Shown here piece by piece: positions 8,070-29,276 of a stretch of 54,545 bases of DNA. Under the pieces are notes generated by a model. It was given only the letters and a program-made list of their open reading frames with translations, was not told the origin of the DNA and ran no database searches. The stretch covers positions 1-54,545 of the IMG/VR virus record IMGVR_UViG_3300014508_000071. One strand, given 5' to 3'. Source of the DNA: a virus. Its lineage: Duplodnaviria > Caudoviricetes. The position numbers and the translations under genes are program-made. The stretch's first letter is position 1; every line of letters starts with the position of its first letter.

Positions 8070-8516
8070 TTATATAGTTTTTAAATCACGATCCAAATCT
8101 CTCTTCTGATCCTTGGCTTTAATCGAATCCCTTTTGTCATGGATTTTCTTTCCTTTACCCAAAGAGACTTCAACCTTAATTTTATGCTTATCATTGAAGA
8201 TAACCTTTACGGGAACAATAGACATTCCTTTTTGTTCCATTTTCCCTTTCAAAGCAGCTAACTCTTGTTTCTTCATTAAAAGCTTTCTTTCTCTATAAGG
8301 CTCGTGGTTATTCTTTCCTGCTGGTTTGTATTCTGGAATGTACAACGATTTCAAGTAGAGTCCGTCTTTCTTAAAATAACAATAGGCATCGCCAATGTTA
8401 CCTTTACCTTGACGTAAAGATTTCACCTCGGAACCTGTAAGCATTATACCAGCGGTGTAGTGCTTAATCAAGTCGTAGTTAAACGATGCTTTTCTATTGT
8501 TTAAAAGTGTTCTCAT
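8070..8516 (-). CDS. smpB: SsrA-binding protein SmpB
   Basis: NRKASFNY, AGIMLTGSEVKSLR, HEPYRERKLL, GKGKKIHDKR tail. Confidence 0.97.
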   Translation of the reverse strand: MRTLLNNRKASFNYDLIKHYTAGIMLTGSEVKSLRQGKGNIGDAYCYFKKDGLYLKSLYIPEYKPAGKNNHEPYRERKLLMKKQELAALKGKMEQKGMSIVPVKVIFNDKHKIKVEVSLGKGKKIHDKRDSIKAKDQKRDLDRDLKTI

Positions 8517-8525
8517 AATCTGAAA

Positions 8526-8735
8526 TTAATAGTTATCTGTTGCTACCACAAGATCGCTCAATTCTTTATCTGTTAATTCTCTAGCTGTTGCTTTAGGATC
8601 ATACTCACCCCATCTTAAACTTACTTTCAAAAGAGCTGCTTCCTCATCTTTAGCAAAAGTGTAATAAAACTGAGGAACCGTAGTCTCTTTTAGGCTAGGT
8701 CTGTTAATAAAAAAAAGTTTCAACCCTTCTTTCAT
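8526..8735 (-). CDS. hypothetical protein
   Basis: 69-aa ORF between rnr and smpB. Confidence 0.55.
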   Translation of the reverse strand: MKEGLKLFFINRPSLKETTVPQFYYTFAKDEEAALLKVSLRWGEYDPKATARELTDKELSDLVVATDNY

Positions 8736-10630
8736 AACTTAAAGTCAATTAAACGCATCTGTAAATCAACAGATACACATTCTACTTGTACAACGTCTCC
8801 GAGAGTCAATTTGTTACCATCTTGCCCTTCTATTCTGAAGTTTTCTTCATCTAAAGAGTAACCATCTTCATTCAAGACTGCTTGAGGAATAAGTCCTCTA
8901 CACCCTGATTCAGTAAGTTCAACATAGATTCCCCACTTCTTAACATCAGTTAATATGGCTTCAAATTTGTCTCCAATTTTATCACTCATCCATTCAGCTT
9001 GCTTGTAAGCAACTGATTCACGCTGAGCATTTGCTGCATATACTTCTTTCGAAGAACAGTGTTTGCTTTTAGCATCTAGCTTGGAGACTTTAATCTCTCT
9101 TGTTCCAGTTAACTTCTCGTGAAGCAACCTGTGAACCATCATATCTGGATACCTTCTAATTGGTGAAGTAAAGTGAGTGTAGAACTCAAACCCTAAACCA
9201 TAGTGTCCGATATTAAAAGGAGTATAATAAGCCTTACTCATAGTCCTGACCAACAAAGTACTAACCATTGTTTCCTCTGGCATTCCCTTAAGATCATCCA
9301 TAATCTTATTGATGGACTCCTTAGTAGCATCTCCACCGCTTGTGTCTAGTTCATAACCCATCTTGTCCAGAAAGACTTTAACCTCAAACAATTTCTCTTC
9401 CGCTGGTTCATCGTGTGAACGATAAACAGAAGGTCTGTCTGATATAAATTTAGAAACCTTTCTATTCGCCAGTAACATTAAGTCTTCAATCAACTGGTGA
9501 GCATCATGAGCATCATCATATTCGATGTCAATGACTGTGCCTTCTTTGTCAAGAATAAACTTAGGCTGTCTTGAGTGAAACTCTAACGCCTTCTTCTTCA
9601 TTCTTTCCTTACGGAGGTTCTTTGATATCTTATCACAAGTTCTCACCACCTCTGCGGTCTTCTCCTCAAACCCTTCACAACTTCCGTTATCAATCATTTC
9701 TTGCGCCTGAGCATAATTTAACCTAACATTGGATCGAGTTGCTGTTCTAGAAAATTTCTCATTTCTTACTTTTCCTTCTAGAGAGATTTCACACATATAA
9801 GAGAATGTGTACTTATCTTCGTCTGGTCTTAAAGAGCAAACTCCATTAGAAAGACTTCTTGGTAACATAGGAATAACCCTATCCACCAAATAAATTGAAG
9901 TAGCTCTTTGATAAGCTTCTTTATCTAATTCAGAATTAGGTCTCACAAAATGTGTTACATCCGCAATATGGATACCCAGACTAAACCAGCCATTTCCGAT
10001 TGGTTCAAATGAAATTGAGTCATCGAAATCTCGTGCTGTTTCTGGATCAATGGTAAAAGTGAATGTGTCTCTTAAGTCAATTCTGTTCTTTACCTCATTC
10101 TCATCTAATTCCATTGGGATAGCATTGGCTTCCGCTAGAACTTCTTCTGGAAAATCTTCCTGAACATTGAACTTACTTATGATTGATTGAATCTCAGCCT
10201 CATGCTCACCACTCTTTCCAAAGATGTGAACAACTTTACCTTCTGGTCTCCTTTTCTTAGGATTCCATTCAAGAAGTTCTGCTTTAACTCGATCTCCATG
10301 ACTAACGCCATTCTGATACTCTCTTTTAACGTGGAAGTCTGTACCTCCTATGTCAGGGATAAAGAAACAGGTCTTCTGTCTCTTATCTATTGTTCCAACT
10401 ATTGTCTTGTTAGTTCTTTCAAGAACTGCTAAGATTTTAGCGGATAGTGTTGATCGGTTAGGTTGACTGATTAGTTCAACTCGAACCAAATCCTCGTGAA
10501 GAGCTTGTCTTCTGTCTTTTTTGGAAATGTAGAACTTAAATCCGTCCTCACTTTTAAACAATCCTGACCCGTTACCATTTTTATGGTAAAAAGTTCCTTC
10601 TATTACATCTCCATCAAAAAATTCTTTCAT
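8732..10630 (-). CDS. rnr: ribonuclease R (RNB family)
   Basis: TIDPETARDFDDS, HIADVTHFV, GHYGLG-YTHFTSPIRRYPD, C-terminal S1 domain. Confidence 0.93.
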   Translation of the reverse strand: MKEFFDGDVIEGTFYHKNGNGSGLFKSEDGFKFYISKKDRRQALHEDLVRVELISQPNRSTLSAKILAVLERTNKTIVGTIDKRQKTCFFIPDIGGTDFHVKREYQNGVSHGDRVKAELLEWNPKKRRPEGKVVHIFGKSGEHEAEIQSIISKFNVQEDFPEEVLAEANAIPMELDENEVKNRIDLRDTFTFTIDPETARDFDDSISFEPIGNGWFSLGIHIADVTHFVRPNSELDKEAYQRATSIYLVDRVIPMLPRSLSNGVCSLRPDEDKYTFSYMCEISLEGKVRNEKFSRTATRSNVRLNYAQAQEMIDNGSCEGFEEKTAEVVRTCDKISKNLRKERMKKKALEFHSRQPKFILDKEGTVIDIEYDDAHDAHQLIEDLMLLANRKVSKFISDRPSVYRSHDEPAEEKLFEVKVFLDKMGYELDTSGGDATKESINKIMDDLKGMPEETMVSTLLVRTMSKAYYTPFNIGHYGLGFEFYTHFTSPIRRYPDMMVHRLLHEKLTGTREIKVSKLDAKSKHCSSKEVYAANAQRESVAYKQAEWMSDKIGDKFEAILTDVKKWGIYVELTESGCRGLIPQAVLNEDGYSLDEENFRIEGQDGNKLTLGDVVQVECVSVDLQMRLIDFKL

Positions 10631-10631
10631 T

Positions 10632-11273
10632 TTATTTCTTTTCTTGGGCTTTTCTTAAAAGCCTAATGACATCCCAAGCGTCTGACAAGGCAATGTGAGC
10701 AACTTGCCCATCTATTCCTGCTCTTGTTTTACAGACACTCATATCTGGTAACTCTCTATCTTGTCCCCAATTTACAAAGTAATGAGCTGGCTCTATACCT
10801 CTTTTTTGCATTTTAATGTATTGATCAAAGGTTGGGAATTTTCCTAAAAACAATCTATCAAATACATCAAACGATTTTCCTGCTACCGTAACATTTATTT
10901 GCGGGGCATTGGCAGTCCATAACTTTGACTGCTCTGTGTATCCAAAGTAGTGTTGTATAAGGAAGTTATAAACATTGGGAATTAACTCCTTTGGTTCAAT
11001 AATCTTATTCTTTTGCTTAAAGACTTTCTTCTTCTGAGCTTCAGCGTTTGGAATTCTATGATAATCCGATAGAGTCTTAATGATTCTAGCATTCATATCT
11101 AAAGCAACGGGGTGACCTTTGATTTCCGAGTGATTAATTAAACAGGAAAATTTTGGAATATCGTCATAAGAGAGCTTTCTATCAGTGTTTTCTACTATGG
11201 CTCCGAACTCTAATATTGAATCTCTGTTATGGCTTACACCAGTTGTTTCTAAATCTATCGATACGTACTTAAT
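10632..11273 (-). CDS. DEDDh 3'-5' exonuclease (DnaQ-like), probable non-ATG (ATT) start
   Basis: frame of the tracked ORF stays open upstream to IKYVSIDLETTG (ExoI); GKSFDVFD (ExoII); HIALSDA (ExoIII). Confidence 0.8.
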   Translation of the reverse strand: MKYVSIDLETTGVSHNRDSILEFGAIVENTDRKLSYDDIPKFSCLINHSEIKGHPVALDMNARIIKTLSDYHRIPNAEAQKKKVFKQKNKIIEPKELIPNVYNFLIQHYFGYTEQSKLWTANAPQINVTVAGKSFDVFDRLFLGKFPTFDQYIKMQKRGIEPAHYFVNWGQDRELPDMSVCKTRAGIDGQVAHIALSDAWDVIRLLRKAQEKK

Positions 11274-11285
11274 GATTTCTAATTT

Positions 11286-12314
11286 TTAATTTATAATTGT
11301 GTATTGACCGTTTTTAATCTCTACGTTAGTTAGCACAAAACTACTATTAATTGCTTGAACAAACAAATCGAATGCCTCCTTTTTTTCTAAGACCACGACT
11401 TCAACTGGTTTTACATTCTTGTTCACCCATTGAATTTTATCCCACTGATTTCCTCCATCTTTCCCAATTTCTTCTTTACTCCTTACAAGGGTAAATTCGC
11501 TTTTTATTTCTATAAAAGTGTTTTCATACTCAAAGTCTGGAGTATACCATCCTACAGGGGTTTTTATTTTCTTCTTATTCGGTAAAGGTAACGGTAGATT
11601 TTTGTTAATTTTATCTTGAAGATAAGCTACTTCATATGAGCCAAGAACATTGCCAATTTTTGTTTTAAAAGTTCTTGATTTCCCGATCACTGGAGTTCTT
11701 TCTGGAGAACCCCAAGACTCTCTACTTGCTTTTGATATTTTTTGTTTACTTGAAAGAGAGTGAGTTTTTCCAGAAAAACCATGAACAGCTCCATAAATTT
11801 GTCTTAACTCTTTACAAATTTCGCTTTTTGTCAATTTTGGAACACCCCATTTTTCTAACCAATATGAAATAGAGTTATCACTCCTATTAAATAGCCCTCC
11901 TATATATTTAGCCCCTCTTTGTTTTTTTGAGTAGAGGAATATTATTTCTTTTTTTTCCTCTTTAGAAGGCTCTCCTTTTTTTGAAAACTTTGAAGTTCTT
12001 AACTCTAAATCATTATTTTTCAAAACTTTTTTTACTGTATCCTCATGAATACTAAGTTCATTAGAAATCTCCTTAAGGTCTTTGCCCTCCTTTACATAAA
12101 GTTCTATAATTTTAGATGAACTATATTTTTTATCCCTAGAATTAGAAGAGTCATATTTTTTATTTCTTAGAGTTAAATTTGATTTTGATACCCATTTTTT
12201 TACAGTTGCGGGTGTAACTTTTAAGTCCTTTGATATCCTATAAAAAGATTGACCTAACTTATATCTCTCTACAATTTCCCTTCTTGTATTTTCATTAATT
12301 CTTTTTGAACTCAT
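11286..12314 (-). CDS. putative homing endonuclease: tandem HTH + NUMOD3-like + PD-(D/E)XK nuclease
   Basis: HTH-like repeats, HSLSSKQKIS, YTPDF...FIEIKS; very AT/Lys-rich. Confidence 0.75.
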   Translation of the reverse strand: MSSKRINENTRREIVERYKLGQSFYRISKDLKVTPATVKKWVSKSNLTLRNKKYDSSNSRDKKYSSSKIIELYVKEGKDLKEISNELSIHEDTVKKVLKNNDLELRTSKFSKKGEPSKEEKKEIIFLYSKKQRGAKYIGGLFNRSDNSISYWLEKWGVPKLTKSEICKELRQIYGAVHGFSGKTHSLSSKQKISKASRESWGSPERTPVIGKSRTFKTKIGNVLGSYEVAYLQDKINKNLPLPLPNKKKIKTPVGWYTPDFEYENTFIEIKSEFTLVRSKEEIGKDGGNQWDKIQWVNKNVKPVEVVVLEKKEAFDLFVQAINSSFVLTNVEIKNGQYTIIN

Positions 12315-12335
12315 AGTATATTTTTACTATAAGTA

Positions 12336-12377
12336 TTAAAGAATTAATGTCTCAAGGTCTATCGATACGTATTTCAT
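12336..12377 (-). pseudogene. orphaned original 5' end of the exonuclease gene (MKYVSIDLETLIL*)
   Basis: ATG follows the TATCTTTG promoter at 12401-12408; 9 residues match the downstream copy. Confidence 0.75.
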
Positions 12378-12416
12378 CGTCTTCTAAATTTAGTTTGAGA
12401 CAAAGATACGCATTTT

Positions 12417-13052
12417 TTATCTATTCTCTACCTTTACGTCAATTTTCATTGTCAGTGATGAGTTTTCTAAACGACCAATTTTTGACATTCGGTCATATGA
12501 AATAGTCTTAATTTCTTCAGACCCAAGCTCTTCGTCATGACCCTCTGTTTTAAGGTGGGAATTAATAGAGAATTTTGCTTTGACATAATCTGTGTCTAAT
12601 AAGTCTTTTTTGGCTAAAAAGTTTTCTACTTGTCTTATAGCTAAACACCTTGCTATTAAACAACACATTTCAGCTTCCATATCTATCTCTGGGAGGAAAA
12701 AAACTGTTGGATATAGAGTTGCTGAAATCATAATATCAGTCTCTTCAATAAGAGACTCAAGATTAATCATAGCTATAGCTTCTCTAGGAGATATTTCCAG
12801 CTCTTTCACTTTCTCTTCATTATATCTACAAATATATTTTAAGGCATCTCCTGAATTTATTTCTCCGTAAACTCTTCTTAAGATAGGAAGAATAACACAT
12901 TTAGCTCTTTGTGAAAAATGACCCTCTTCTTTCTTATCCATTCGTTTAGTTAGATTTTCAAAAGCATGAGCTAGTCGAATTTTTTCGTCTTCTTGAAGAC
13001 CCTCTAACAAACCAGTTTGATCCCATTTTTTATATACAGATAATTTTTTCAT
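12417..13052 (-). CDS. hypothetical protein with N-terminus resembling T4-like major capsid protein N-terminus
   Basis: KKWDQTGLLEGL...FEN...ILPILRRVY; resemblance from memory of gp23-like proteins. Confidence 0.5.
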   Translation of the reverse strand: MKKLSVYKKWDQTGLLEGLQEDEKIRLAHAFENLTKRMDKKEEGHFSQRAKCVILPILRRVYGEINSGDALKYICRYNEEKVKELEISPREAIAMINLESLIEETDIMISATLYPTVFFLPEIDMEAEMCCLIARCLAIRQVENFLAKKDLLDTDYVKAKFSINSHLKTEGHDEELGSEEIKTISYDRMSKIGRLENSSLTMKIDVKVENR

Positions 13053-13199
13053 TTTTTTCTATTTCTTTTATCAAAAAACCAATCTTGCAAAAATAGCAAA
13101 AGTTGGCAAGTACACATTACCGTAAAAACAACCCACCAATCAAACATCAAACACAACAAAGATACGGCAAAAAATATTGTTGCAAGAAATCTTCTAATC

Positions 13200-13823: not shown

Positions 13824-13875
13824 GGAAACAAAGTCTTAGTTTTTACGTTATAATAATGTAACAAGATACGAAACC

Positions 13876-14304: not shown

Positions 14305-14363
14305 AAACTTTTAATACTTATTGATGGAGGCTTTTGAATTAATGGAAGTTAAAATTAATAAGT

Positions 14364-15167
14364 ATGGAAAAGAAGTTTTATGTTTATGTATATCTCGACC
14401 CTAGAAAAAAAGGAAGGTTTACATATGAAGATTTAGATTTTTGTTTTCTTTTTGAACCTTTTTATGTTGGTAAAGGTACTGGTCTAAGATATAAAAGACA
14501 TTTATATGATTGTGAAAGATTTAGTAACAACCATAAGTCTTCTAAGATTGAAAAGATTAGAAATGAAGGGCATGAGCCTTTTATCACAATATTAAAAGAT
14601 AATTTATCGGAAAAAAAATCTTTCCAAATTGAAAGCAAAGTGATATCTTCTATAGGTAGAAGTTCTACTAAAGAAGGTAGTTTGACAAACTTCACTCTTG
14701 GAGGTGAGGGTTCTTCTGGAAGGAGAATGTTAAAAGAAACTAAAGAAAAAATAAGAAAAAAAGCTTTAGGGAGAAAACACTCCAAAGAAACTAAGGCTAA
14801 AATGAAAAAAAATAATACTGGAAGGAGGAATCCCAATTTTGGTAATAAGGAAGATAAAAGTTGTTGGTACGGTAAAAAACATTCCGAAGAATCGAAAGAA
14901 AAGATGAGTAAGAATGGAAAAGGAATTTCTAGGAAAAGAGAGTCAGGGAATAGATTGAAAAAAGAAACCAAAGAAAAAATTGGAATTTCTAATTCCAAAT
15001 CAGTTACTATTATTAAAGAAAATGGTGAAAAAATAATTTTCTCAAAAATGACTGATGCAATTAAATTTTCTGGATTAAAAAGCTCTCAAATCAATAAGTT
15101 AATTGAGAGTGGTGAGTTAAGTAAAAGAAAAAAATATAAATTCATAAAATGTCAGATCAAAGGGTAA
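14364..15167 (+). CDS. GIY-YIG homing endonuclease with NUMOD3 repeats
   Basis: FYVYVYLDPR...PFYVGKG..R, LTNFTLGGEG, HSKETKAKM and HSEESKEKMS. Confidence 0.85.
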   Translation: MEKKFYVYVYLDPRKKGRFTYEDLDFCFLFEPFYVGKGTGLRYKRHLYDCERFSNNHKSSKIEKIRNEGHEPFITILKDNLSEKKSFQIESKVISSIGRSSTKEGSLTNFTLGGEGSSGRRMLKETKEKIRKKALGRKHSKETKAKMKKNNTGRRNPNFGNKEDKSCWYGKKHSEESKEKMSKNGKGISRKRESGNRLKKETKEKIGISNSKSVTIIKENGEKIIFSKMTDAIKFSGLKSSQINKLIESGELSKRKKYKFIKCQIKG

Positions 15168-15523: not shown

Positions 15524-15533
15524 TAAATGAAAA

Positions 15534-15755
15534 ATGATAGAGGAAGAAGAGATAATTAAAATCGTAAAAGACAATATCAAAAGCAGTTCACGTTCCATTC
15601 ATAAACGTGACTTGAAACCAAAAAAATTAATCGAATCCCTTGATAATCAATTTATTTTCTTATCTTTGGACGGTGAAACGATGAGTTATCGACAAGTTTA
15701 TGTTGGAGTTCAGAACTTAATAACCAATAATTTACTAGGAGAGTCGGGTTATTAG
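15534..15755 (+). CDS. hypothetical protein
   Basis: 73-aa ORF. Confidence 0.55.
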   Translation: MIEEEEIIKIVKDNIKSSSRSIHKRDLKPKKLIESLDNQFIFLSLDGETMSYRQVYVGVQNLITNNLLGESGY

Positions 15756-16107: not shown

Positions 16108-16350
16108 TGTAAAGCTCGCTATTATTTATTAGCGGATCATTACCGAACGAGGGTTCGCTACCCTCCGACTCCACCAAGGAAACAATGGTTTCCAACTATA
16201 AAATGGGGTCGAACGGATTTGACGGGATGAAGAAGTTAACGAAGAGAGTTTACACGTCTATAAACGACAACACAATTAACACAATTGCTGCTACTTTCAC
16301 TCCAGCGAGTGCCGTAGCGCAGCCTGTTGCTCTTGCAGCCTAACAGGTAC
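16108..16350 (+). ncRNA. ssrA: circularly permuted two-piece tmRNA
   Basis: acceptor piece first (T-arm GAGGG-TTCGCTA-CCCTC, CGACTCC-A-CCA ending 16176); 28-nt spacer; coding piece from GGGGTCG at 16205 with G3.U70; tag GAC(16266)..TAA(16343) = DNTINTIAATFTPASAVAQPVALAA*; outer ends approximate. Confidence 0.93.
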
Positions 16351-16359
16351 GAAAAAAAG

Positions 16360-16388
16360 AAAGGGAAGTCTCAGATTTCCCTTTTTTT
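16360..16388 (+). terminator. intrinsic terminator after tmRNA
   Basis: AAAGGGAAGTC-TCA-GATTTCCCTTT plus T run. Confidence 0.85.
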
Positions 16389-16418
16389 ATGCCCTAAAAA
16401 ATAAAGTTGTCAACAGCT

Positions 16419-16481: not shown

Positions 16482-17453
16482 ATGAGGCAATTAAAGATTT
16501 CCGCACAAATTACAAACAGAGAAACAAAATCGTTTGAAAAGTACCTAACAGAAGTTTCTCAAGTTGGGGACACTATTACAGCGGCAGAGGAAGTCGAACT
16601 CGCCATCATTATCCAAACATCAAAAGACCCAAAAGCAGTTGAAAAAGCTGTTAAAAAATTATGTAGAGCTAATCTGCGTTTCGTTATTTCTGTTTCCAAA
16701 CAATACCAAGGACAAGGAATGCCTTTGGGTGAAATTGTTAATGAAGGTAATCTTGGAATGATCAAAGCGGCTTATAAATTCGATCATTCGAGAGGTTTTA
16801 AATTCATTTCTTATGCGGTATGGTGGATACGCCAATCTATCCTGCAAGCAATTGCCGAGACAGGTCGTCCAATCAGACTTCCTTTAAACAAAATTACAGA
16901 ACTCAATAAGGTCAAGAAGATTCTGAATTCAATAGAACAACATCTTGGTAGACCTGCTACCATTTCAGAGATTATTCGTGCTTATGCTAGAAACGAAATG
17001 GTCAGTAGCTTTAAAAAGCAAGGAATTTTATTATCGCCAACTGAAGAAGAAATTACCGTTGCAGTTGACTCTAGAGATTGGAAGTCTCTCACTGATCTAA
17101 TCGAAAGACAATCAAAAAGAATCAGCAGTTTAGATGAGTTCGCAAACGATGAAGATCAAAGCGCAACTATCGGAGACTTAATGGCATCGGGAGGATTCGA
17201 GGAATTAAAGTCTGAATTAAATCAGGCTGATTTGAAAATCATCTTAGAAGGAGTTATGAACAAGCTTCCCGAAAGAGAGCGTTACGTTTTAACAAACTGT
17301 TTCGGTATCGGTGGAACAGAACAAAAGTCTCTAGAAGAGATTGGGTTTAGGTTAGAGCTGACAAAAGAAAGAGTTCGTCAAGTTAGAGAAAAAGGCTTGA
17401 GAAGAATGAGAGTCTTGGATAAATCAGGTCAACTTACTCAGTTTATGAATTGA
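16482..17453 (+). CDS. RNA polymerase sigma-70 factor (Bacteroidota RpoD/SigA-like)
   Basis: ANLRFVISVSKQYQ, NEGNLGMIKAA, GFKFISYAVWWIRQSI, region 4 LTKERVRQ. Confidence 0.93.
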   Translation: MRQLKISAQITNRETKSFEKYLTEVSQVGDTITAAEEVELAIIIQTSKDPKAVEKAVKKLCRANLRFVISVSKQYQGQGMPLGEIVNEGNLGMIKAAYKFDHSRGFKFISYAVWWIRQSILQAIAETGRPIRLPLNKITELNKVKKILNSIEQHLGRPATISEIIRAYARNEMVSSFKKQGILLSPTEEEITVAVDSRDWKSLTDLIERQSKRISSLDEFANDEDQSATIGDLMASGGFEELKSELNQADLKIILEGVMNKLPERERYVLTNCFGIGGTEQKSLEEIGFRLELTKERVRQVREKGLRRMRVLDKSGQLTQFMN

Positions 17454-21150: not shown

Positions 21151-21506
21151 TTCGTTATAATATCAAAACTAATAATTTCTAAATCATCTTGGATAACCCC
21201 TTCATTAACGCTTCCGATAGCTCTCATTCCGATATCAAAATCAAAATCTTTTAACTCTTTCATTTCTTCAACATCACTTACTAAAGGGAACAAGACATCT
21301 CTTATGAATTCAAAATCTTCTCGTTCAGGATGTCTTTCTTTCGATTTCTCAATAAACTCCTCTGATTTTTTAGAAGTATCAGAGTTGTAAACCTCCAAAA
21401 AGTCTTTAACTTCAAACTCTTCTTTTCTATTTGCATAAACGTAAGTCTTCAACTCATCCTGTACTTTGTTTGCAACTAGCTCTAAATCCTCTAAATCCTT
21501 TACCAT
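21147..21506 (-). CDS. acidic hypothetical protein
   Basis: start moved to MVKDLE after TATCTTTG at 21511-21518. Confidence 0.65.
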   Translation of the reverse strand: MVKDLEDLELVANKVQDELKTYVYANRKEEFEVKDFLEVYNSDTSKKSEEFIEKSKERHPEREDFEFIRDVLFPLVSDVEEMKELKDFDFDIGMRAIGSVNEGVIQDDLEIISFDIITK

Positions 21507-21775: not shown

Positions 21776-23353
21776 ATGAAAAGCAGCCCGACAAATGGAA
21801 AGTCACTATTGAAAGATGGATGGCAAGTGGAGGAAATTAACGGAAGAAAAATGCTTGCAATTTACGAAAGTGGAGAGAGGATACAACTTCACGATCTAAA
21901 CGATTTTTCTGAAACTCTTTCAGCGGAGTTAGAAACGAAAGCTGGGTTAATAGATGGAGAAAAGCATTTGGAAAGTTTTCCAAATTTCTTGTATCAAGTG
22001 GATTTCAGCGAATTTATCTCGGAAGATCAGACTTCCTATAAATTCAATGATCCTGTTATAAGAACTATGCTGGATTCGTTTTCTACAGAAAAATTCTTGC
22101 TCATTGTCAAATCAAGGCAAGTATATATGACGACTGTTCTTTGCTTATATTCTATTTGGAAGGCTGCGGTTCATGGTGATAAAATTGTCTATCTAGCGCT
22201 GAATCAAGATAACGCTAATAGAGTAAAAGAGAGGATGGATCATATTATGAATTCACCTTCTGTTCTTAAACTACTATCTCTTAGAAAATCAGGCAGATTA
22301 AATGGAGATAAATTCCATTTCGCATCTGAAGGTACTATTAAGGTTATTTCTCCTTCTCCTCGAAAAGCAAAAGGAGAAAGTATTGATCTATTAATATGGG
22401 ATGAGTCTGGCTTTACAGCCGATAGTTTTGAAGTGGCTGAGGCTGTACTTCCACAAGTTTCTTTTAGTAAGAAGGGTCAGATTATTATGGCTTCAACTCC
22501 TAATGAAAAAAATGGAATGTTCTATAAAGCTTACGCCTCAAGTAAGATATCAGAAAAAAACAGTAATTTCAAAGTAAACATTATAGACAAGGCAGTTGCT
22601 AGAAACTATAAATTTAGAAAAGAAGATATTATTCTTAAATTTAAAATCCCAGCTCTCTCAGATATCTCAAAATATAAAGTTGTTGCTCTTGACGACATAT
22701 ATTTTAGAGATGAGAAAGTTGTGGATAAATTTTCAACCATAACAATCAACCAGAAATACCGAGACAACATTCAAGCTGACTCTGAAACAGTTGACTTGCT
22801 GGTTTCTATAAAGATGCCATCACAGGAATCAAACCCTCTTATGGTCAACAGTGGATTCAATTATGATGTCACTAAGTACGGAATTGATTTTGCTCTAGTG
22901 GAGTTAGATTTTGCCCAAGACAGCAAAGCAAAGATTATTGAAATTCCTTTCCATCAAATTAAAAACAATGCACTGGAAAGTCAAATGATAAGGAAGACTC
23001 ACCCAGCCTTAGATGACTTATCTAAAGAAGCTAGAGCTTTGGAGGATTTATTTTCTCCAGATAAGATTTCTGAGAAAGATGGATACAAAAAATTACCTAA
23101 CGGAAAAGTTATATTTGACATGACTCGCTTTCCTAGATATAGCAACCCACATCAAATTCATTGTGAATTAAATTGTGAATTTAGAAAGATTCCTCTCAAG
23201 ATTTCAAATGAAAATAAAACTATTTCCATGAGAATGAGTGGGGAAATGTTAGACAAGATCAACGAAAAGATCGATGAAATGTCAATTTTGACAAAGCGAG
23301 ACATTAGCCTATCGGATTACCTTCGAGGTTTAATTAAAAAAGATTTGGATTAA
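21776..23353 (+). CDS. terminase large subunit-like ATPase fused to C-terminal ribbon-helix-helix domain
   Basis: KSRQVYMTT, LLIWDE, MASTPN, CELNCEF; tail ISMRMSGEMLDKI...SLSDYLRGLIKKDL; no RNase H-like nuclease domain seen. Confidence 0.7.
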   Translation: MKSSPTNGKSLLKDGWQVEEINGRKMLAIYESGERIQLHDLNDFSETLSAELETKAGLIDGEKHLESFPNFLYQVDFSEFISEDQTSYKFNDPVIRTMLDSFSTEKFLLIVKSRQVYMTTVLCLYSIWKAAVHGDKIVYLALNQDNANRVKERMDHIMNSPSVLKLLSLRKSGRLNGDKFHFASEGTIKVISPSPRKAKGESIDLLIWDESGFTADSFEVAEAVLPQVSFSKKGQIIMASTPNEKNGMFYKAYASSKISEKNSNFKVNIIDKAVARNYKFRKEDIILKFKIPALSDISKYKVVALDDIYFRDEKVVDKFSTITINQKYRDNIQADSETVDLLVSIKMPSQESNPLMVNSGFNYDVTKYGIDFALVELDFAQDSKAKIIEIPFHQIKNNALESQMIRKTHPALDDLSKEARALEDLFSPDKISEKDGYKKLPNGKVIFDMTRFPRYSNPHQIHCELNCEFRKIPLKISNENKTISMRMSGEMLDKINEKIDEMSILTKRDISLSDYLRGLIKKDLD

Positions 23354-23402
23354 AATAAATATTTACCTATATTTACTGAAACAAATTTAAAAAACTAATA
23401 GA

Positions 23403-23894: not shown

Positions 23895-23912
23895 GAAATT
23901 ACACTGCAAAAG

Positions 23913-23938
23913 AAAAGGAGCCATTGGCTCCTTTTTTT
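23913..23938. terminator. bidirectional intrinsic terminator
   Basis: AAAAGGAGCC-ATT-GGCTCCTTTTTTT between convergent genes. Confidence 0.85.
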
Positions 23939-23960
23939 GTGTCTTATACTTTTTTGTCTT

Positions 23961-24893
23961 TTACAATTGGATGAGATCAAACTTTCTAGCTTTGTTTCCT
24001 CCTTTAATAACAGACATTCCTTGTTGAACAATTTCTTGATACTCCTGAATATGTTCGATCATCGGAGCGACTTTGTTTGCCATTGCTACGGACTGTAAGT
24101 CAAAATAGTGAACATGACTCATTAAAGGTGTTACTCGATATCCGTTATTCATTCCAATTTTACCAACAATGCCCAGCATAATACTTTCAATTAAAAGGCT
24201 TCTCTCATGAAATCCTTGACCAGCAATAAAATCATAACAGTGTTTCATGTAATGGAATTCTGCATCATTTTGAGAGAAATGGCTTACTCCCAAGTACCCT
24301 TTATATTGAGTTAAGGTCGAAATGTTTTCCATTGCTGAATTAAAGGATACTCCTTTTTCAATTCCAAAAGTAACCAGAAGCTTCTCTACGCCCTCTACGT
24401 ACTTCGCTGCCGAGAGATTCATAGTAGAGTGAAGCATGTCGCCACAGCCCTCCTCATCACCTTTCATAAGCGTTCTCATACCAAACCCACAGAACAATAT
24501 TGTGTCTGCACCAGTTTTCTCAATTATCTTCTCATAACATTCAGTCATAGAAGCGACTGATTGCTTCATAATAAGATAGAAAGGAACTTGTTCTTGATAA
24601 GTTTCCTCAAACCACCTTGAAGCCATCCCAGAAGGATAATGCTCCAAAGCTACTTTCATATTAGAGCCAACCATGAACAACCTATCCTTTAATAGGACTT
24701 GAGCTTCAGTTACTTCTGCTAACTCTTCTAACTGAAGGTTACTGAAGTTAACCATAGTTAACTCTTTGCCTTCAGCAGCTAATTTGTAATATAGAGGAAG
24801 GCAAGAGAGAATGTCAAAGTCTCCACCTGCACCAACCAAAAGAACCTTTTGTGAGTTGGCTATACGATCCTCAAAATCTTTTGAAAAATTCAT
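23961..24893 (-). CDS. DUF1152-like protein
   Basis: LLVGAGGDFDI and KGDEEGCG resemble the family; degenerate. Confidence 0.55.
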   Translation of the reverse strand: MNFSKDFEDRIANSQKVLLVGAGGDFDILSCLPLYYKLAAEGKELTMVNFSNLQLEELAEVTEAQVLLKDRLFMVGSNMKVALEHYPSGMASRWFEETYQEQVPFYLIMKQSVASMTECYEKIIEKTGADTILFCGFGMRTLMKGDEEGCGDMLHSTMNLSAAKYVEGVEKLLVTFGIEKGVSFNSAMENISTLTQYKGYLGVSHFSQNDAEFHYMKHCYDFIAGQGFHERSLLIESIMLGIVGKIGMNNGYRVTPLMSHVHYFDLQSVAMANKVAPMIEHIQEYQEIVQQGMSVIKGGNKARKFDLIQL

Positions 24894-24897
24894 AGTC

Positions 24898-25440
24898 TTA
24901 ATTTTTAATTTTTAGAAATCTATCTTGCTTGAATTCATCCATGATAACATCCTCTCGGACAGCATCAAGAACTTCTCCTAACCAGTTAGTTCCTTTCCAG
25001 TTTTTCTCCCCCACTCTCCTAGCTTCTTTCTCGGATAACCCGATTCCCCAGACTTCATCATTTGGGGCTGCTTCAACTAATCTAGTGCCTGATGTAGAGA
25101 TAAGCTGTTGCTTTAAGTCAAGGTTTTGTGTAAATTTATAATAGTTTCCTTGATAAACAATGTTCCTAGCATTTGCATCCCAAACAGGCTTACTAAATCC
25201 TTTAACGGCTCTTCCGACACTTTTAGCATCTCTAGGATGGTTTGCTTCGATTGCTTTCTGCATATGCTTTTCATCACCAAACAACTTAGCCTTGCCGTGC
25301 ATCATCCAATGTTCAGCAGTTTTAAACTCAATTCCATCCACAACAAAACCTCTGTCATGCCATTGAGAAAAAGGGCTTGCACTCTTCCAAAAATATGTGA
25401 AATTCTTAATTTTCATTTTTTGCTTGTGTAATCTGATCAA
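24898..25440 (-). CDS. NADAR (YbiA-like) protein
   Basis: FSQW, TAEHWMM..KAKLFGD, KFTQN, LVEAAPNDEVWGIG, GTNWLG; true start may be MKIKNF. Confidence 0.9.
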   Translation of the reverse strand: MIRLHKQKMKIKNFTYFWKSASPFSQWHDRGFVVDGIEFKTAEHWMMHGKAKLFGDEKHMQKAIEANHPRDAKSVGRAVKGFSKPVWDANARNIVYQGNYYKFTQNLDLKQQLISTSGTRLVEAAPNDEVWGIGLSEKEARRVGEKNWKGTNWLGEVLDAVREDVIMDEFKQDRFLKIKN

Positions 25441-25762
25441 AATACCATGTCATACCATTAAATCCACTTTCGTACATTTCATTAATAGGCTTTCCTAGCA
25501 TTTGAGAGGTTATATAAATTTCTCCTTCTGCGTTAATCACTGTAACATTAACTTTTGCTTCTTCTGGAAGGAGACCTTCTCCTTCATGATTAATTTGTTT
25601 AACCATTTCATTAAATACTTCTTCAATAGGAAGTATGTCATGATCCTTTGCTATGTTAATCATTTTACCCTCAAGTACAGCGGTAGATGAAATTCCCAAC
25701 TCCTCTTCAGTAATTAGTATTTCAACCTTATCTTCATTCGGTATTTTTAAATTCTCGTCCAT
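25406..25762 (-). CDS. hypothetical protein
   Basis: 118-aa ORF. Confidence 0.6.
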   Translation of the reverse strand: MDENLKIPNEDKVEILITEEELGISSTAVLEGKMINIAKDHDILPIEEVFNEMVKQINHEGEGLLPEEAKVNVTVINAEGEIYITSQMLGKPINEMYESGFNGMTWYFDQITQAKNEN

Positions 25763-26487
25763 TTCTCAATTTGTTTACAAGAACCATCGTCAAATAAATC
25801 AAAAACCAGAGGTTTATGTACTGGTCTATAATTGTCATCTAAGTTCGATGCGTTAATATAGGTAATTCCCCCAGAAATGTCAACACCTCTGCTTGTATGT
25901 ATGTGACCAAACACATGCATTTTCAATTGCTTTAGACTAAAGCTTCTTATCTTTAGATCAGCACAACCAGTGCTGTTTCCTTTAGGGTTAACATCTAAAT
26001 GACCCAACGGAGGACAGTGAGTTATCAATAACTCTACGTCATCTGGAATCAAATCCCAGCAAGCCTCTAAAGGCTTTCCTCTCCTAAGGTTAAAAGCCCA
26101 ATCAAAGAATTCAGGTTGGTACGGAGAACCATACATTTTGATTCCATTCACCACAGCTGACTCATTCTCTAGATAGATGACATTTTCAGGAACAACATCT
26201 CTTGGGTTAAGAGTAGTTATTCGATTAAATTTTCTACCTTTTTCATATTTAGTCTTAGCGGTAGGATCAAAGAAAATTTCGTGATTACCAGCAACAACAA
26301 CTTTGTTTGGGATTGGTAAAGCAGAATACCAATCAAAGAAATCGGTCACTTCATCCTCAAACCCAAGCATGGTAAAGTCCCCAGCATGAATTATTACGTC
26401 ACACTGGGGAATACCAAATCTTTCCTCAATAACCTTATGTTTATTATGAGTGTCAGATAAATATGCTATGGTTGCTATTTTTCTCAT
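25747..26487 (-). CDS. calcineurin-like metallophosphoesterase
   Basis: SDTH, HAGDF, AGNHE, ITHCPP, FGHIH. Confidence 0.9.
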   Translation of the reverse strand: MRKIATIAYLSDTHNKHKVIEERFGIPQCDVIIHAGDFTMLGFEDEVTDFFDWYSALPIPNKVVVAGNHEIFFDPTAKTKYEKGRKFNRITTLNPRDVVPENVIYLENESAVVNGIKMYGSPYQPEFFDWAFNLRRGKPLEACWDLIPDDVELLITHCPPLGHLDVNPKGNSTGCADLKIRSFSLKQLKMHVFGHIHTSRGVDISGGITYINASNLDDNYRPVHKPLVFDLFDDGSCKQIEKWTRI

Positions 26488-26651
26488 TGTATTTCCACAG
26501 ACCAACTTCCTTCTTTAACGATGTCGTCAGCCTCCATGTCCATTTCCATATACAACTCTAAGCCGTGTGCTATAATCTCATTTATAGTACCTTCATTTGG
26601 GTTGTGATTTTTACTTTTTTCGTACTTCACTTTAATTATTAACTCTTCCAT
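26484..26651 (-). CDS. small hypothetical protein (55 aa)
   Basis: manual ORF MEELIIKVKY...; fills the gap with an ATGA overlap. Confidence 0.55.
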   Translation of the reverse strand: MEELIIKVKYEKSKNHNPNEGTINEIIAHGLELYMEMDMEADDIVKEGSWSVEIQ

Positions 26652-26655
26652 CGTT

Positions 26656-27219
26656 TTAAATTATTTCGTCTACAACACCAAGAGCTAAAGCCTCAGATGA
26701 AGACATATACCAATCAATTTTCTTTTCATATATTTCCGTGAGCTTCTTCTTAGAAATTTTCGTCTTTTCAATCGTAATATCTTCAAGAATATCTTGTAAT
26801 CTCTTTGTTTCTTCCACTCTTTCTTCCATGTCTTTCACTTTACCAAAAGCTCCACTAGATACTTGATGATATAAAGGCGTGGCTCTTTTGTAAGCAAATC
26901 TCTTATGTCCTGATATCAGAAGAATAAATCCACAGCTCATTGCTGCACCTGTAACGTAAGTCCAAACAGGAGTGTCGGAGTTTTCAACTACTGACACCAA
27001 CCCCATACACTGGTAGACCATACCTCCGTATGAGTCAATCATGATCTCAATTGGCTTAGCTTTGTATTCCATATCGTATACAGGATATAGCTTTTCTAAA
27101 AGCCTATCGTCTCTGTTTATTTCAACAATTTTCTCCGTTAACGCTGCAACGGATTTTTGAGTAAACTGTTCTGTAAAAAACAATTTTCTTTCCATAGGTA
27201 ATGGTAATGTTTCTGCCAT
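26656..27219 (-). CDS. ClpP-like S14 protease (divergent)
   Basis: IDSYGG, GAAMSCG, LYHQ, DWYMSSSEALALGVVD. Confidence 0.85.
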   Translation of the reverse strand: MAETLPLPMERKLFFTEQFTQKSVAALTEKIVEINRDDRLLEKLYPVYDMEYKAKPIEIMIDSYGGMVYQCMGLVSVVENSDTPVWTYVTGAAMSCGFILLISGHKRFAYKRATPLYHQVSSGAFGKVKDMEERVEETKRLQDILEDITIEKTKISKKKLTEIYEKKIDWYMSSSEALALGVVDEII

Positions 27220-27246
27220 CTTTATTTGTTTTATATTAGTTTGTTT

Positions 27247-27531
27247 TTATTTGTATTCAAAATATGTATACTCTACATAATTGAATTCATTCCTTCTCTC
27301 TACGACTGATGCTTTTAGTTTATCTGATATGATCAGCATGTGGCAAAAATCGTCTTTCTGTTGTATCTCCCGCCTCTCAACAAAAGATTTTGGGTGAGAT
27401 GGGTTGATACCCATATTGTCAATAACCTCCTTAAAAAAGACCCCAACAAGGTCTTTTGGCTCTCCTCCCGTAATATAAACTTCTTGTCTCAAAAGGTAAA
27501 ATAGATAACTGCTGCGACAAGTATCAACCAA
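27247..27531 (-). CDS. hypothetical protein
   Basis: 94-aa ORF; start uncertain. Confidence 0.45.
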   Translation of the reverse strand: MVDTCRSSYLFYLLRQEVYITGGEPKDLVGVFFKEVIDNMGINPSHPKSFVERREIQQKDDFCHMLIISDKLKASVVERRNEFNYVEYTYFEYK

Positions 27532-27646
27532 ACCGCTATTTTACCCCAAGATATTCTATAGATTCTCCAGCTTTTAAAACCATGACCAATGATGCCATTA
27601 TTTCCTGAACTAGATAATTCCATGAAAAGTGTTCTCAAAATTTTCT

Positions 27647-28105
27647 TCATAACTCTTTCGCAATATATCTCTCAGCTCCGTGAGAATCGATTTTCTGAAT
27701 CGCTCTTACGGCTGAAGATGAAATATGTTCTAAACTTTTATCACAAAGCAAGAACATTACTTTGATTTCAGGTTTGTAATCTCGAATAAAAGCTAGCTGG
27801 TTTTGTTCATACTGAAGATCAGCTCCATTCCTTAAGCCTCTAACTAAAGTAACGTCATAACCATCTTTTTCTAATTTTGTCACAAAGTCGTGGAGAAATC
27901 CATCATAAGAACCAACATTCATACTTGGATTGTTATTTTTAATCTCTTTCTCTCTAGCAAAGTCAAGATTCTTCTTCTCTGGGTTTTTACCCAAAGCCAG
28001 AAGAACATTTCCTTCACCAAAAATTGCTTCGGCTTGATCATAAATGTTTTTATGCCCAATAGTTAAAGGGTTAAATGAACCCGCAAATATCGCTACTCTT
28101 TTCAT
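27647..28105 (-). CDS. coaD: phosphopantetheine adenylyltransferase
   Basis: AIFAGSFNPLTIGH, NPEK, VRGLRNGADLQYE, ISSSAVR. Confidence 0.9.
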   Translation of the reverse strand: MKRVAIFAGSFNPLTIGHKNIYDQAEAIFGEGNVLLALGKNPEKKNLDFAREKEIKNNNPSMNVGSYDGFLHDFVTKLEKDGYDVTLVRGLRNGADLQYEQNQLAFIRDYKPEIKVMFLLCDKSLEHISSSAVRAIQKIDSHGAERYIAKEL

Positions 28106-28120
28106 AGTCTCAAAGATACA

Positions 28121-28148
28121 AAAAAAAAGGGACACTTCCGCATCCCTT
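28121..28148 (-). terminator. intrinsic terminator
   Basis: minus strand AAGGGATGC-GGAA-GTGTCCCTT plus T run. Confidence 0.7.
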
Positions 28149-28172
28149 CCCTTTTATATAAAAGTATTTATC

Positions 28173-28487
28173 TTATCCTTGATCGAATTCAATATTCACA
28201 AATTCCTCAAGAAGGACATCATAAGTAACATAGCAAGATGACCAAGAGCTTTGGTTATTACTTTCATTAGCATCGTTATGACTGTAACCGAAACAGAAAT
28301 GAATTTCCTTCTCTCCAAACTCACATTCATCAATCTCTAACTCGAATTTTTCAAATTCATTATACCTGAACTCTAATAGTTTCCTAAAATGATCAGCTTC
28401 ATACTTATGATCTTCAAGAGTCTTTTCGTTTTCTCGGAACAAATCCAAGAACATCTGATTGAAATCTATGTACTTTTTGAACTCCAT
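28173..28487 (-). CDS. acidic hypothetical protein
   Basis: 104-aa ORF. Confidence 0.65.
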   Translation of the reverse strand: MEFKKYIDFNQMFLDLFRENEKTLEDHKYEADHFRKLLEFRYNEFEKFELEIDECEFGEKEIHFCFGYSHNDANESNNQSSWSSCYVTYDVLLEEFVNIEFDQG

Positions 28488-28490
28488 AGC

Positions 28491-29276
28491 TTACTCTTTT
28501 TCAGCCCAAGTTTTCCATTCCATATCAGCCAAAGGTGAAGGAGTGAAACTTTTTGCTCTTGAAATAACATGGTCAATCGCACCATATGCCTTTGCTTCCT
28601 CAGCTCTTAACCAGTGATCTCTATCACAATCAGCGAAGATTGTTCCGATATCCTGACCAGTATGGTGTGCAATAATTTCATAAAGCTCAAACTTAAGCTT
28701 TTGTATTTCCTTATTGGTATTCTGAATGTCCGTTGCCTGACCATTAGCTCCTCCCATAGGTTGATGCTGCATAAGTCTTGAATATGGAAGAGCATATCTC
28801 TTTCCGTTCTCTCCTGCAATAGCTAAAACGTAAGCCATAGAAGCTGCCATTCCAGTTGTGGTTGTGGATACATCACAAGCAATTTCTTGCATTGTAGAGT
28901 AGATGGAGAGTCCATCATACACCGAACCACCGGGTGAGTTGATATAGATATCAATATCTTCTGATTTGTCTGTCTTTTCTAAATATAGAAGCTGAGACAA
29001 AACAATATTTGCAATCTGAGAATCAATCCCGTATCCTAAGAAAATGATCCTGTCTCTCATCAAACGTGAGAAAACATCGATCACAGCCATGTTTTTTGGG
29101 TTCTCCTCAATTACGTTTGGAGTCATGCCCATGATTCCATCCTTATGGGATATAATCTGGTGAGCATTGTTCATTTGGAGTCCTTGAAACCTCTCCATCC
29201 ATTTAATGTAGTCTTCAGCCTCGGATTTTGTAACCCCGTTAATCGACTGAATGAACTTTAGATAATCATTCATCAT
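28491..29276 (-). CDS. clpP: ATP-dependent Clp protease proteolytic subunit
   Basis: IDVFSRLMRDRIIFLG, YINSPGGSV, GMAASMA, MQHQP, DRDHW; start set at MMNDY, approximate. Confidence 0.93.
   Translation of the reverse strand: MMNDYLKFIQSINGVTKSEAEDYIKWMERFQGLQMNNAHQIISHKDGIMGMTPNVIEENPKNMAVIDVFSRLMRDRIIFLGYGIDSQIANIVLSQLLYLEKTDKSEDIDIYINSPGGSVYDGLSIYSTMQEIACDVSTTTTGMAASMAYVLAIAGENGKRYALPYSRLMQHQPMGGANGQATDIQNTNKEIQKLKFELYEIIAHHTGQDIGTIFADCDRDHWLRAEEAKAYGAIDHVISRAKSFTPSPLADMEWKTWAEKE

Follow-up and report, generated by a model that had tools for sequence, protein, structure and literature searches.

Components of the trans-translation machinery have been described in phages before. Huge phages carry transfer-messenger RNAs (tmRNAs) together with SmpB, as stated in the accessible parts of the survey by Al-Shayeb et al. 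2020 (PMC7162821), and a list of phage tmRNAs, available as excerpts, was given by Hudson et al. 2014. OM43 phage Melnitz carries a tmRNA in two-piece form, the possible roles of which are discussed in the accessible text of Buchholz et al. 2022 (PMC9004378); the same excerpts give two-piece forms as 53 of the 133 unique phage tmRNA structures. The cultivated megaphage G encodes a tmRNA, ClpP and ClpX, according to the available portion of a 2025 paper (PMC12484599). In bacteria, rnr-smpB(-ssrA) clusters are found, for example, in Streptococcus pneumoniae (PMC3534368, accessible part). Here we analyze a stretch of 54,545 bases that is the entire IMG/VR virus record IMGVR_UViG_3300014508_000071 (hereafter, the window). 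It encodes SmpB, RNase R, a circularly permuted two-piece tmRNA and two ClpP-family proteins, and these genes are very likely real, intact and phage-borne. We lean slightly towards reading the whole chain as a phage-borne translation quality-control set acting in rescue and disposal; the tmRNA and SmpB, taken on their own, probably function as a rescue pair. The initial annotation of this DNA placed all elements within about 21 kb (8070–29276), and all were recovered at or near these coordinates:

8070–8516, minus strand: smpB, SsrA-binding protein of 148 aa (Pfam E 1.5e-50, 171.3 bits)
8732–10630, minus strand: rnr, RNase R of 632 aa (TIGR02063), on the strand of smpB and 215 nt upstream of it
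16114–16343, plus strand: ssrA, circularly permuted two-piece tmRNA gene (Rfam RF04321, tmRNA_permuted)
26656–27219, minus strand: ClpP2, short ClpP-family serine protease of 187 aa (Pfam E 2.5e-25)
28491–29276 (open reading frame (ORF) to 29348), minus strand: ClpP1, canonical ClpP of the Bacteroidota type, 261 aa (Pfam E 2.3e-68)

The presence of a tmRNA, claimed initially, is borne out by the Rfam search. RF04321 (tmRNA_permuted) scores 67.2 bits versus a gathering score of 47 and aligns over model positions 1–213 of 213. The gene order is permuted, with the 3' acceptor strand and CCA preceding the 5' acceptor strand. The parts are arranged as follows:

16149–16165, plus strand: T arm, preceded by a 5' tail
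16166–16172, plus strand: acceptor 3' strand CGACUCC, then ACCA (16173–16176)
16177–16204, plus strand: intervening hairpin of 28 nt
16205–16211, plus strand: acceptor 5' strand GGGGUCG, then the pseudoknot-region hairpin
16287–16340, plus strand: favoured tag frame AATFTPASAVAQPVALAA, with the stop codon TAA at 16341–16343
16352–16389, plus strand: hairpin and U run; the minimum-free-energy fold gives it 15 stem pairs, and the related contig L230 shares both stem and T-run

The acceptor stem consists of seven pairs between GGGGUCG and CGACUCC, the third of which is G16207:U16170 (G3:U70). A G:U third acceptor pair is the alanine identity element. The tag has a hydrophobic C-terminus, VAQPVALAA, directly followed by TAA. 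The fold of the RNA has a z-score of -4.69, and 0 of 200 shuffled sequences fold equally well. The hairpin at 16352–16389 is a probable intrinsic terminator of the tmRNA precursor; it is not among the calls of a consensus terminator scan. L230 is a 26-kb IMG/VR contig with ~80% DNA identity to the window and is syntenic with it from rnr to position 21162. Its tmRNA gene lies in the same place, between a DnaA_C-like ORF and a sigma factor gene, and reaches 62.4 bits with RF04321. The two tmRNA genes are 90% identical, versus ~80% for the flanks, and the tags differ at 3 of 18 residues, with the last nine being identical. A helix pairing the 5' end of the acceptor piece (16114–16120) with a part of the tag frame (16304–16310) retains 7/7 pairs relative to L230, through one double and two single substitutions.

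The window tmRNA fits no lineage-specific permuted model (alpha, beta and cyano were compared), the best score being 34.9 bits with beta_tmRNA versus a cut-off of 84; the L230 gene obtains 43.3 bits with the same model and cut-off. Within IMG/VR, the acceptor-sequence pattern of the window tmRNA is shared solely by the contig of L230. With default settings ARAGORN called no tmRNA in the window, and at -ps90 its output was a 'Permuted' tmRNA whose 25-residue tag begins with GAC. The default run also missed five of six other phage loci that exceed the Rfam cut-offs (L018, L019, L023, L002, L003 and L230) and detected 5/5 cellular Bacteroidota tmRNAs. Since the default program missed the window gene and other phage tmRNAs, ARAGORN-based surveys probably undercount phage tmRNAs.

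The likely host phylum is Bacteroidota, where tmRNAs look different. All five Bacteroidota genomes examined encode one-piece tmRNAs with tags of 9–10 residues, such as GENNYALAA, and RF04321 exceeded its cut-off in none of the 151 Bacteroidota genomes searched. Sub-threshold RF04321 hits in 21 of these 151 genomes were considered as candidate permuted tmRNAs and rejected: the top five overlap standard one-piece tmRNAs. Being permuted and specifying an 18-residue tag that ends in ALAA, the window tmRNA is thus not Bacteroidota-like. By sequence, SmpB, RNase R and ClpP1 look host-derived and the tmRNA does not, giving the locus a mixed origin, in which Bacteroidota-like proteins are combined with a non-Bacteroidota permuted tmRNA.

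SmpB scores above both NCBIfam equivalog cut-offs (NF003843, 176.6 vs 130 bits; TIGR00086, 176.1 vs 119.1 bits) and aligns over its full length with solved SmpB structures, through the end of the C-terminal tail (7ljp, 5e-40). The basic C-terminal tail is complete (GKGKKIHDKR...), with GKGKKIHDKRDSIK matching solved SmpB tails in the alignment. In an alignment of 13 tails, comprising the window protein, nine relatives with 68–91% identity and three Bacteroidota proteins, residues G122, K123, D127 and K128 are invariant (13/13) and R129 is conserved in at least 90% of the sequences. Beyond these nine relatives the identity drops to 55–60%. In two SmpB relatives, P0126 (81% identity) and P0129 (71%), the sequence after GKKxxDKR is different (NRILDKQIDRE...), which may represent a variant tail or a frameshift. 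Among cellular SmpBs, the nearest are from Bacteroidota (Flavobacteriales, Ekhidna, Cyclobacteriaceae; 53–55% identity). A quick maximum-likelihood tree was built from 97 rows, the cellular part of which was picked via patterns from phage sequences and is biased toward relatives. One of its splits (SH-aLRT 94) groups the window protein and 16/16 other phage SmpBs with Bacteroidota. Phage SmpBs do not form one clade in this tree, and the window protein sits on a long branch (0.9).

RNase R is likewise above its equivalog cut-off (TIGR02063, 637.8 vs 597.85 bits) and contains the RNB, CSD2, OB_RNB and S1 domains of Pfam. Its top solved structure is Bacillus subtilis RNase R (8cdu, 1.8e-121). The TIDxxxxRDFDD motif is retained, as are the catalytic aspartates of the RNB domain, TIDPETARDFDD being aligned with TIDGADAKDLDD of 8cdu. 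The initial statement that smpB and rnr are nearly adjacent is accurate, both for the spacing given above and for the identity of the two proteins. The window enzyme is a short form, residues 5–632 of which align with residues 56–705 of a Bacteroides RNase R of 733 aa. The match begins at position 68 of the TIGR02063 profile and stops at position 724 of the E. coli-type model, which has 813 positions; by these profiles and the Bacteroides alignment, the N-terminal helix-turn-helix region and the basic C-terminal tail of cellular enzymes are not present. The dN/dS ratio relative to L230 is 0.077 over 632 codons, compared to 0.086–0.098 for the neighboring genes, and judging from this substitution pattern the gene is under purifying selection. 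Five relatives share 63–90% identity with the window RNase R, followed by a drop to 51% and then to 40–45%. All six organism-named hits among the best 120 are from Bacteroidota (40–44% identity). Comparison of SmpB and RNase R with cellular genes, as recommended in the initial annotation, thus places both close to Bacteroidota, by the tree for SmpB and by identity for RNase R. The start of rnr is abutted by a small gene:

10632–11096, minus strand: orf154, 82% identical in L230, dN/dS 0.098

The product of orf154 reaches an ESM Atlas feature score of 0.95 to viral clusters of Rv2179c-like 3'-5' exoribonucleases. Pfam gave no hit for it, nor did BLASTP show similarity with the Rv2179c-like protein of the window itself; by eye, an H-x4-D motif is present and the N-terminal DxE motif is not. 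orf154 is possibly a remnant of a DEDD/Rv2179c-like exoribonuclease, which we offer as a lead only.

Both ClpP proteases named initially were found, with intact catalytic triads; the canonical status of ClpP2, in which the axial loop is missing, did not find support. ClpP1 scores 230.1 bits with the Pfam family (cut-off 20.2) and 252.3 with NF001368 (cut-off 249), and stays below the equivalog TIGR00493 (228.1 vs 308.6). It is 49–56% identical to ClpP of 5/5 Bacteroidota genomes, with the match beginning at residue 20. Because Bacteroidota ClpPs align from this residue of the 261-aa form and the long ORF runs into the gene upstream with its first 83 nt, 29276 is the likely start. The Ser-His-Asp triad (GMAASMA, MQHQP, DRDHW) and the N-terminal axial loop region (TPNVIEE...RIIFL) of ClpP1 align with solved ClpP 6hwm. 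In ClpP2 the triad (GAAMSCG, LYHQV, IDWYM) is aligned with 6x60, and all 11 of its NCBIfam matches are below cut-off. The co-chaperone reported further on in the initial annotation is also there, with both J and C-terminal domains:

36512–37357, minus strand: DnaJ/CbpA-like co-chaperone (Pfam DnaJ 1.2e-26, DnaJ_C 5.8e-30)

This protein is below the NCBIfam DnaJ cut-offs, and DnaJ is no part of the trans-translation pathway. Membership of both ClpP2 and DnaJ in the pathway is doubtful. The observation that the window encodes no Clp ATPase was reproduced twice: none of the 73 window ORFs of at least 80 aa that were scanned with Pfam matches the Clp/Lon ATPase families, and a six-frame search of the record gave no AAA_2 match, the single AAA match (13.3 bits) lying inside RecD2. 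Small ORFs beside clpP, rnr and dnaJ gave a best Pfam E of 0.0078 even at a permissive threshold, and the ORF at 28173–28487 had no usable match in the ESM Atlas (best score 0.80).

In the window, smpB and rnr lie within 2.6 kb, the tmRNA gene is 5.5 kb away and both clpP genes are located within 21 kb. The tmRNA gene adjoins a gene for a sigma factor:

16482–17453, plus strand: sigma-70 family factor (Pfam Sigma70_r2 and r4)

A similar grouping is seen in L001, an IMG/VR contig of 9 kb, where rnr, smpB and a sigma gene are found within 5 kb and the sigma gene adjoins smpB; RNase R and SmpB of this contig are 39% and 50% identical to those of the window, respectively. The RNase R gene of L001 (3441–6446) consists of two ORFs, one for RNB (513 aa) and one for S1 (127 aa), and an opposite-strand gene with a phage-lysozyme domain stands between them. 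Among cellular loci, rnr lies within ~6 kb of smpB in 0/48 Bacteroidota loci and in 2/80 loci overall, both from Solirubrobacterales. Given that the window proteins are Bacteroidota-like and that none of the 48 Bacteroidota loci has this arrangement, the rnr-smpB adjacency in the window looks independently assembled. Huge phage LR756502 encodes, within 4.4 kb of one strand, a sigma factor, a ClpP2-like protein, thioredoxin and SmpB, followed by YqeY and tRNA arrays; the ClpP2-like gene is 2.6 kb from smpB and the sigma gene 3.3 kb upstream of smpB. Among 13 other SmpB-bearing IMG/VR loci, considered with flanks of up to 10 kb per side, RNase R is found in one and ClpP in none. Of five whole huge-phage records with SmpB, four have a standard tmRNA above cut-off, three ClpP, two ClpX and one RNase R. 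The latter is LR756504, which encodes SmpB, tmRNA, RNase R, ClpX and three ClpP-family matches scattered over 636 kb; Lak-B5 has SmpB, tmRNA, ClpP and ClpX and no RNase R.

A different neighborhood of smpB was observed in IMG/VR. GOLLD RNA (RF02032, 285–317 bits) is located just upstream of smpB in six of eight SmpB loci scanned, at these positions:

L002: 2622–3029
L003: 8591–8996
L005, L006 and L008: 9495–9902
L007: 9235–9645

tRNAs are found beside GOLLD, and in L002, L003 and L004 a standard tmRNA is found downstream of smpB at a distance of no more than ~1 kb. GOLLD, smpB and ssrA thus seem to form a recurrent neighborhood in phages.

The window has a uniform composition with 35% G+C, from which the genes of interest are not distinct. 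The record is classified as linear with a CheckV completeness of 18%, which translates into a full genome of roughly 300 kb; the window is probably a piece of a marine jumbo phage of about this size. Three ORFs bear directly on its origin:

11286–12314: homing-endonuclease-type ORF (HTH and endonuclease), missing in L230; skipped in an ice relative, with the joint 11243>12348
14364–15167: homing-endonuclease-type ORF (GIY-YIG and NUMOD3), missing in L230; skipped in an ice relative, with the joint 14575>15529
21776–23353, plus strand: terminase large subunit (TerL)-like ORF, a weak phage hallmark (PHROG_2, 3.1e-13)

The TerL-like ORF is the only match to a packaging or structural hallmark in the window. 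It scores 21.9 bits with Pfam GpA_ATPase (cut-off 25.6), is 26–29% identical to annotated jumbo-phage TerL over about one third of the query (tblastn), and as a query found no related IMG/VR locus. The Pfam scan also revealed homing endonucleases of the GIY-YIG and HNH types as well as a protein with a CHAP domain, and no integrase families among the 73 ORFs. Neither rRNA nor ribosomal protein genes were found in the window by Rfam and Pfam scans. Searches with RNase R recovered one IMG/VR contig, L230, and two short contigs from metagenomes (1.2 and 2.6 kb), both without smpB. When contigs of four DNA sequencing runs were compared with the window, near-identical pieces were present in a marine sediment run, and relatives with ~97% identity, lacking both homing-endonuclease ORFs, in an ice metagenome.

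The activities of these genes can be arranged into the following scheme. ssrA would be transcribed as one precursor ending at its own terminator and cut by host tRNA-processing enzymes at the encoded CCA (16176) and before GGGG (16205), which would yield an acceptor piece and a coding piece joined by base pairing. Host AlaRS would charge this tmRNA via G3:U70. Phage SmpB would then bring it to ribosomes that have reached the 3' end of a truncated mRNA and stalled there, where translation would resume on the tag frame and add ~18 residues ending in ALAA. The broken mRNA would be removed by phage RNase R and the tagged peptide degraded by ClpXP, with a chamber of phage ClpP1, possibly mixed with ClpP2, and an unfoldase that would be the ClpX of the host or one that the phage encodes beyond the fragment. 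The benefit would be that ribosomes are kept free while host and phage mRNAs are cut. We infer the processing, charging and tagging steps and the benefit to the phage, as well as a link between rescue on the one hand and RNase R and ClpP on the other. Roles proposed for phage tmRNA-SmpB pairs, namely, freeing hijacked ribosomes, recycling host protein or sensing the state of the host, are guesses. It may be speculated that the purpose of the set is to counter mRNA- or tRNA-cleaving defences, to which the neighboring RNA-repair-type genes, namely, those for Tpt1/KptA, RlaP, three RNase T-like exonucleases, NADAR, and GlnRS with its two tRNA-Gln genes, are the one pointer.

A number of observations weigh against this scheme. 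The resume codon of the tmRNA is uncertain, ARAGORN pointing to GAC at 16266 and the Rfam alignment to GCU at 16287. The window and L230 differ by 2 nt in length upstream of CACAAUUAACACAAUU, which speaks for a frame that begins after CACAAUUAACACAAUU; furthermore, the L230 tag is given by ARAGORN as AGTFTPMSDVAQPVALAA, with 18 residues. Taking this length together with the Rfam resume codon, the window tag is read as AATFTPASAVAQPVALAA, and on these alignments we favour the 18-residue tag with GCU at 16287 over GAC at 16266. None of the 17 sequencing runs listed for the stretch is an RNA run. RNase R does not have ~55 N-terminal and ~28 C-terminal residues of the Bacteroides enzyme, and in E. 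coli RNase R the basic C-terminal tail is required for tmRNA-SmpB-dependent decay of non-stop mRNA. ClpP2 is devoid of the N-terminal axial loop, the part of ClpP that meets the unfoldase: its Pfam match starts from profile position 28 and its best PDB alignments from about residue 50 of the PDB chains. Moreover, its top PHROG is phrog_94, 'head maturation protease'. ClpX, ClpA, Lon and SspB are all absent from the window. The five genes occupy both strands and belong to no fewer than three transcription units; the packaging gene and the sigma gene lie in between. In L230, which is the closest relative, unrelated small ORFs occupy the 0.7 kb past rnr and there is no smpB in its 26 kb; as far as these contigs indicate, the rnr-smpB adjacency is not stable. 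Finally, the counts for RNase R (1/5), ClpP (3/5) and ClpX (2/5) in huge-phage records imply that the rescue and disposal gene set is optional in huge phages. The initial description of a near-complete pathway is supported in part: the named genes look intact, an unfoldase and an SspB-type adaptor are missing from the window for a complete one, and the action of the five genes as one pathway is a reasonable proposal.

Explanations diverge on how the genes relate to each other. They could be independent host-derived auxiliary genes that are functionally uncoupled, with tmRNA and SmpB rescuing ribosomes, RNase R and other 3'-5' exonucleases degrading host RNA for nucleotides, and the ClpP pair carrying out proteolysis unrelated to the tag. 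The scattered genes of LR756504, the lost adjacency in L230, the separate transcription units of the window, the low counts at the 13 SmpB loci and the presence of three more RNase_T/Rv2179c-type exonucleases in the window all agree with this explanation. It does not account for rnr adjoining smpB in two phage lineages, the window and L001, as diverged as the identities above indicate, in an arrangement unseen at the 48 Bacteroidota smpB loci, nor for the proximity of the ClpP2-like gene to smpB in LR756502 or the ALAA end of the tag. A C-terminus of the ALAA type is the kind read by ClpXP in E. coli. Uncoupled genes are thus, in our view, a rather unlikely explanation. A narrower objection concerns the disposal arm, since the ClpP pair, or ClpP2 alone, could be a capsid or virion maturation protease. 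Neither ClpP in the window has capsid or scaffold genes beside it, and the same is true of ClpP2 in LR756504 and LR756502; ClpP1 resembles cellular Bacteroidota ClpP along its whole length, and the ClpP-related head maturation protease family NF045542 (cut-off 120) is not reached by ClpP2 (61.4) or ClpP1 (96). What speaks for a maturation protease is that phrog_94 is the best PHROG of both ClpPs, that homologues in Tsamsa-like Bacillus phages are annotated as head maturation proteases in RefSeq, and that ClpP2 has no axial loop. On balance, we regard the maturation role as unlikely.

Two further explanations question the tmRNA or the phage itself. ssrA fragments are known in prophages (PMC9004378, accessible part), and a phage tmRNA that consists of the TLD only acts as an inhibitor of host tmRNA (PMC4131195 and PMC11915505, as far as their available text goes), so the window gene could be a non-working relic of integration into host ssrA, or a decoy titrating host SmpB. 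Such an origin is very improbable for a gene that is complete, with both acceptor strands, T arm, tag frame and terminator, has a conserved counterpart in L230 in which a compensatory change is seen, is of another form than the tmRNAs in the likely host phylum, and is accompanied by the phage's own smpB in a window where no integrase families were found among the scanned ORFs. The initial annotation named a cellular chromosome as the case that would overturn it, and a streamlined bacterium or a plasmid would indeed offer a home for so many cellular-type genes (GlnRS, RNase R, ClpP, DnaJ, sigma-70), the more so as the sole structural or packaging hallmark is the weak TerL match and as analogous translation genes are found on large putative plasmids (Al-Shayeb et al., PMC7162821, accessible parts). 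We nevertheless consider the contig to be viral. It is an IMG/VR virus record with a TerL-like ORF, synteny with L230, homing endonuclease ORFs that are missing in relatives, and no rRNA or ribosomal protein genes. Its cellular-type proteins are just 42–56% identical to their nearest cellular homologues, the closer homologues forming a separate clade. The phage-typical short ClpP is common to phages of 460–640 kb, and for its more than 1000 homologues the longest contig of each of the best 120 is below 200 kb. A cellular or plasmid origin is hardly credible on this evidence. Reading the genes as a phage-borne rescue and disposal set remains our preference. A stronger form of it is conceivable, namely, an orthogonal rescue-degradation circuit that the host could not supply, built from a non-host two-piece tmRNA with a long tag specific to the phage, matched SmpB, trimmed RNase R and a ClpP1/ClpP2 chamber, and acting as a sigma-switched counter-defence module put together independently of bacterial operons. 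If true, the sigma factor of the phage, the gene of which lies beside the tmRNA gene, would turn on the circuit, which would keep ribosomes working while mRNA and tRNA are cut by abortive-infection nucleases (anticodon nucleases, Cas13/type III CRISPR RNases, toxin mRNases) or in the course of host shut-off by the phage. We regard this stronger form as a long shot.

Other genes of the window are related to RNA or translation:

24898–25440, 29266–30120, 33621–34241, 34446–35621, 38192–39285, 41536–41934: NADAR; MBL-fold protein; three RNase T/Rv2179c-like exonucleases; RlaP; short Tpt1/KptA RNA 2'-phosphotransferase
51032–52573, 53346–53501, 31403–32275, 659–1009: GlnRS beside two tRNA-Gln genes (UUG, CUG); YqeY/GatB-like domain protein; tRNA-binding-domain protein

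NADAR, the exonucleases, RlaP, Tpt1/KptA and others can be grouped as genes related to RNA repair, nucleotide signals and NAD. The MBL-fold protein, the gene of which overlaps the clpP1 start, has weak matches to RNase Z and the anti-Pycsar protein Apyc1 (26.9 bits vs 50). GlnRS, tRNA-Gln, the YqeY/GatB-like and the tRNA-binding-domain genes constitute a translation theme besides ribosome rescue. In LR756502 (L245, 19710–19976), two adjacent tRNA-like genes score best with the tRNA-Sec model (48.2 and 46.1 bits, cut-off 47); they may be merely tRNAs with a long variable arm.

The idea of phage-encoded rescue is not new, its parts being known in giant phages (tmRNA-SmpB in 2020, two-piece tmRNA in 2022, tmRNA-ClpXP in 2025). 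In full-text literature searches we found no paper on RNase R, Clp protease and tmRNA-SmpB as a phage-encoded set, and no functional test of a phage tmRNA-SmpB pair. The window shares smpB and tmRNA with the huge phages LR756501, LR756502, LR756504 and the Lak Prevotella phages, the SmpBs being 37–47% identical. ClpP1 is 56–59% identical to the copies of LR756504 and Lak-B5, and ClpP2 shows 53.5% identity to that of LR756504 (636 kb), 60.6% to LR756500 (462 kb), 62.6% to LR756502 (642 kb) and 31% to Lak-B5. LR756504 resembles the window in having RNase R (33% identity), and it also has ClpX. The huge-phage genes are spread across hundreds of kb, whereas the window has them inside 21 kb, and rnr adjoins smpB there. 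Huge-phage records also differ in the form of the tmRNA, which is of the standard one-piece type in 4/5 whole records and permuted in 0/7, versus permuted in the window. Phage G has, like the window, a tmRNA and its own Clp protease, according to the accessible text; ClpX is present there and SmpB is unmentioned in that text, the host being a Gram-positive relative of Bacillus, whereas the window has SmpB and no ClpX was seen in it. The bacterial rnr-smpB clusters, in the part of the source available, share with the window the position of rnr directly upstream of smpB on one strand. Melnitz resembles the window in the tmRNA itself, as both it and the window represent marine phages with a permuted ssrA that mismatches the form of the host lineage; in the accessible part of the Melnitz paper smpB, rnr and clpP are not described, and the window has all three. 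A pattern scan of IMG/VR yielded at least 119 loci with permuted tmRNA-like genes, 114 of 119 being called permuted by ARAGORN, and four of them (L055, L059, L061, L100) have a ClpP-like gene in the 2-kb flanks. The tags of these IMG/VR permuted tmRNAs are mostly of the alpha type (AND...ALAA, 10–15 residues), in contrast to the 18 residues of the window tag. The window locus is a compact set that can be cloned and tested together, and its notable twist relative to the systems described so far is the non-host permuted tmRNA with a long tag.

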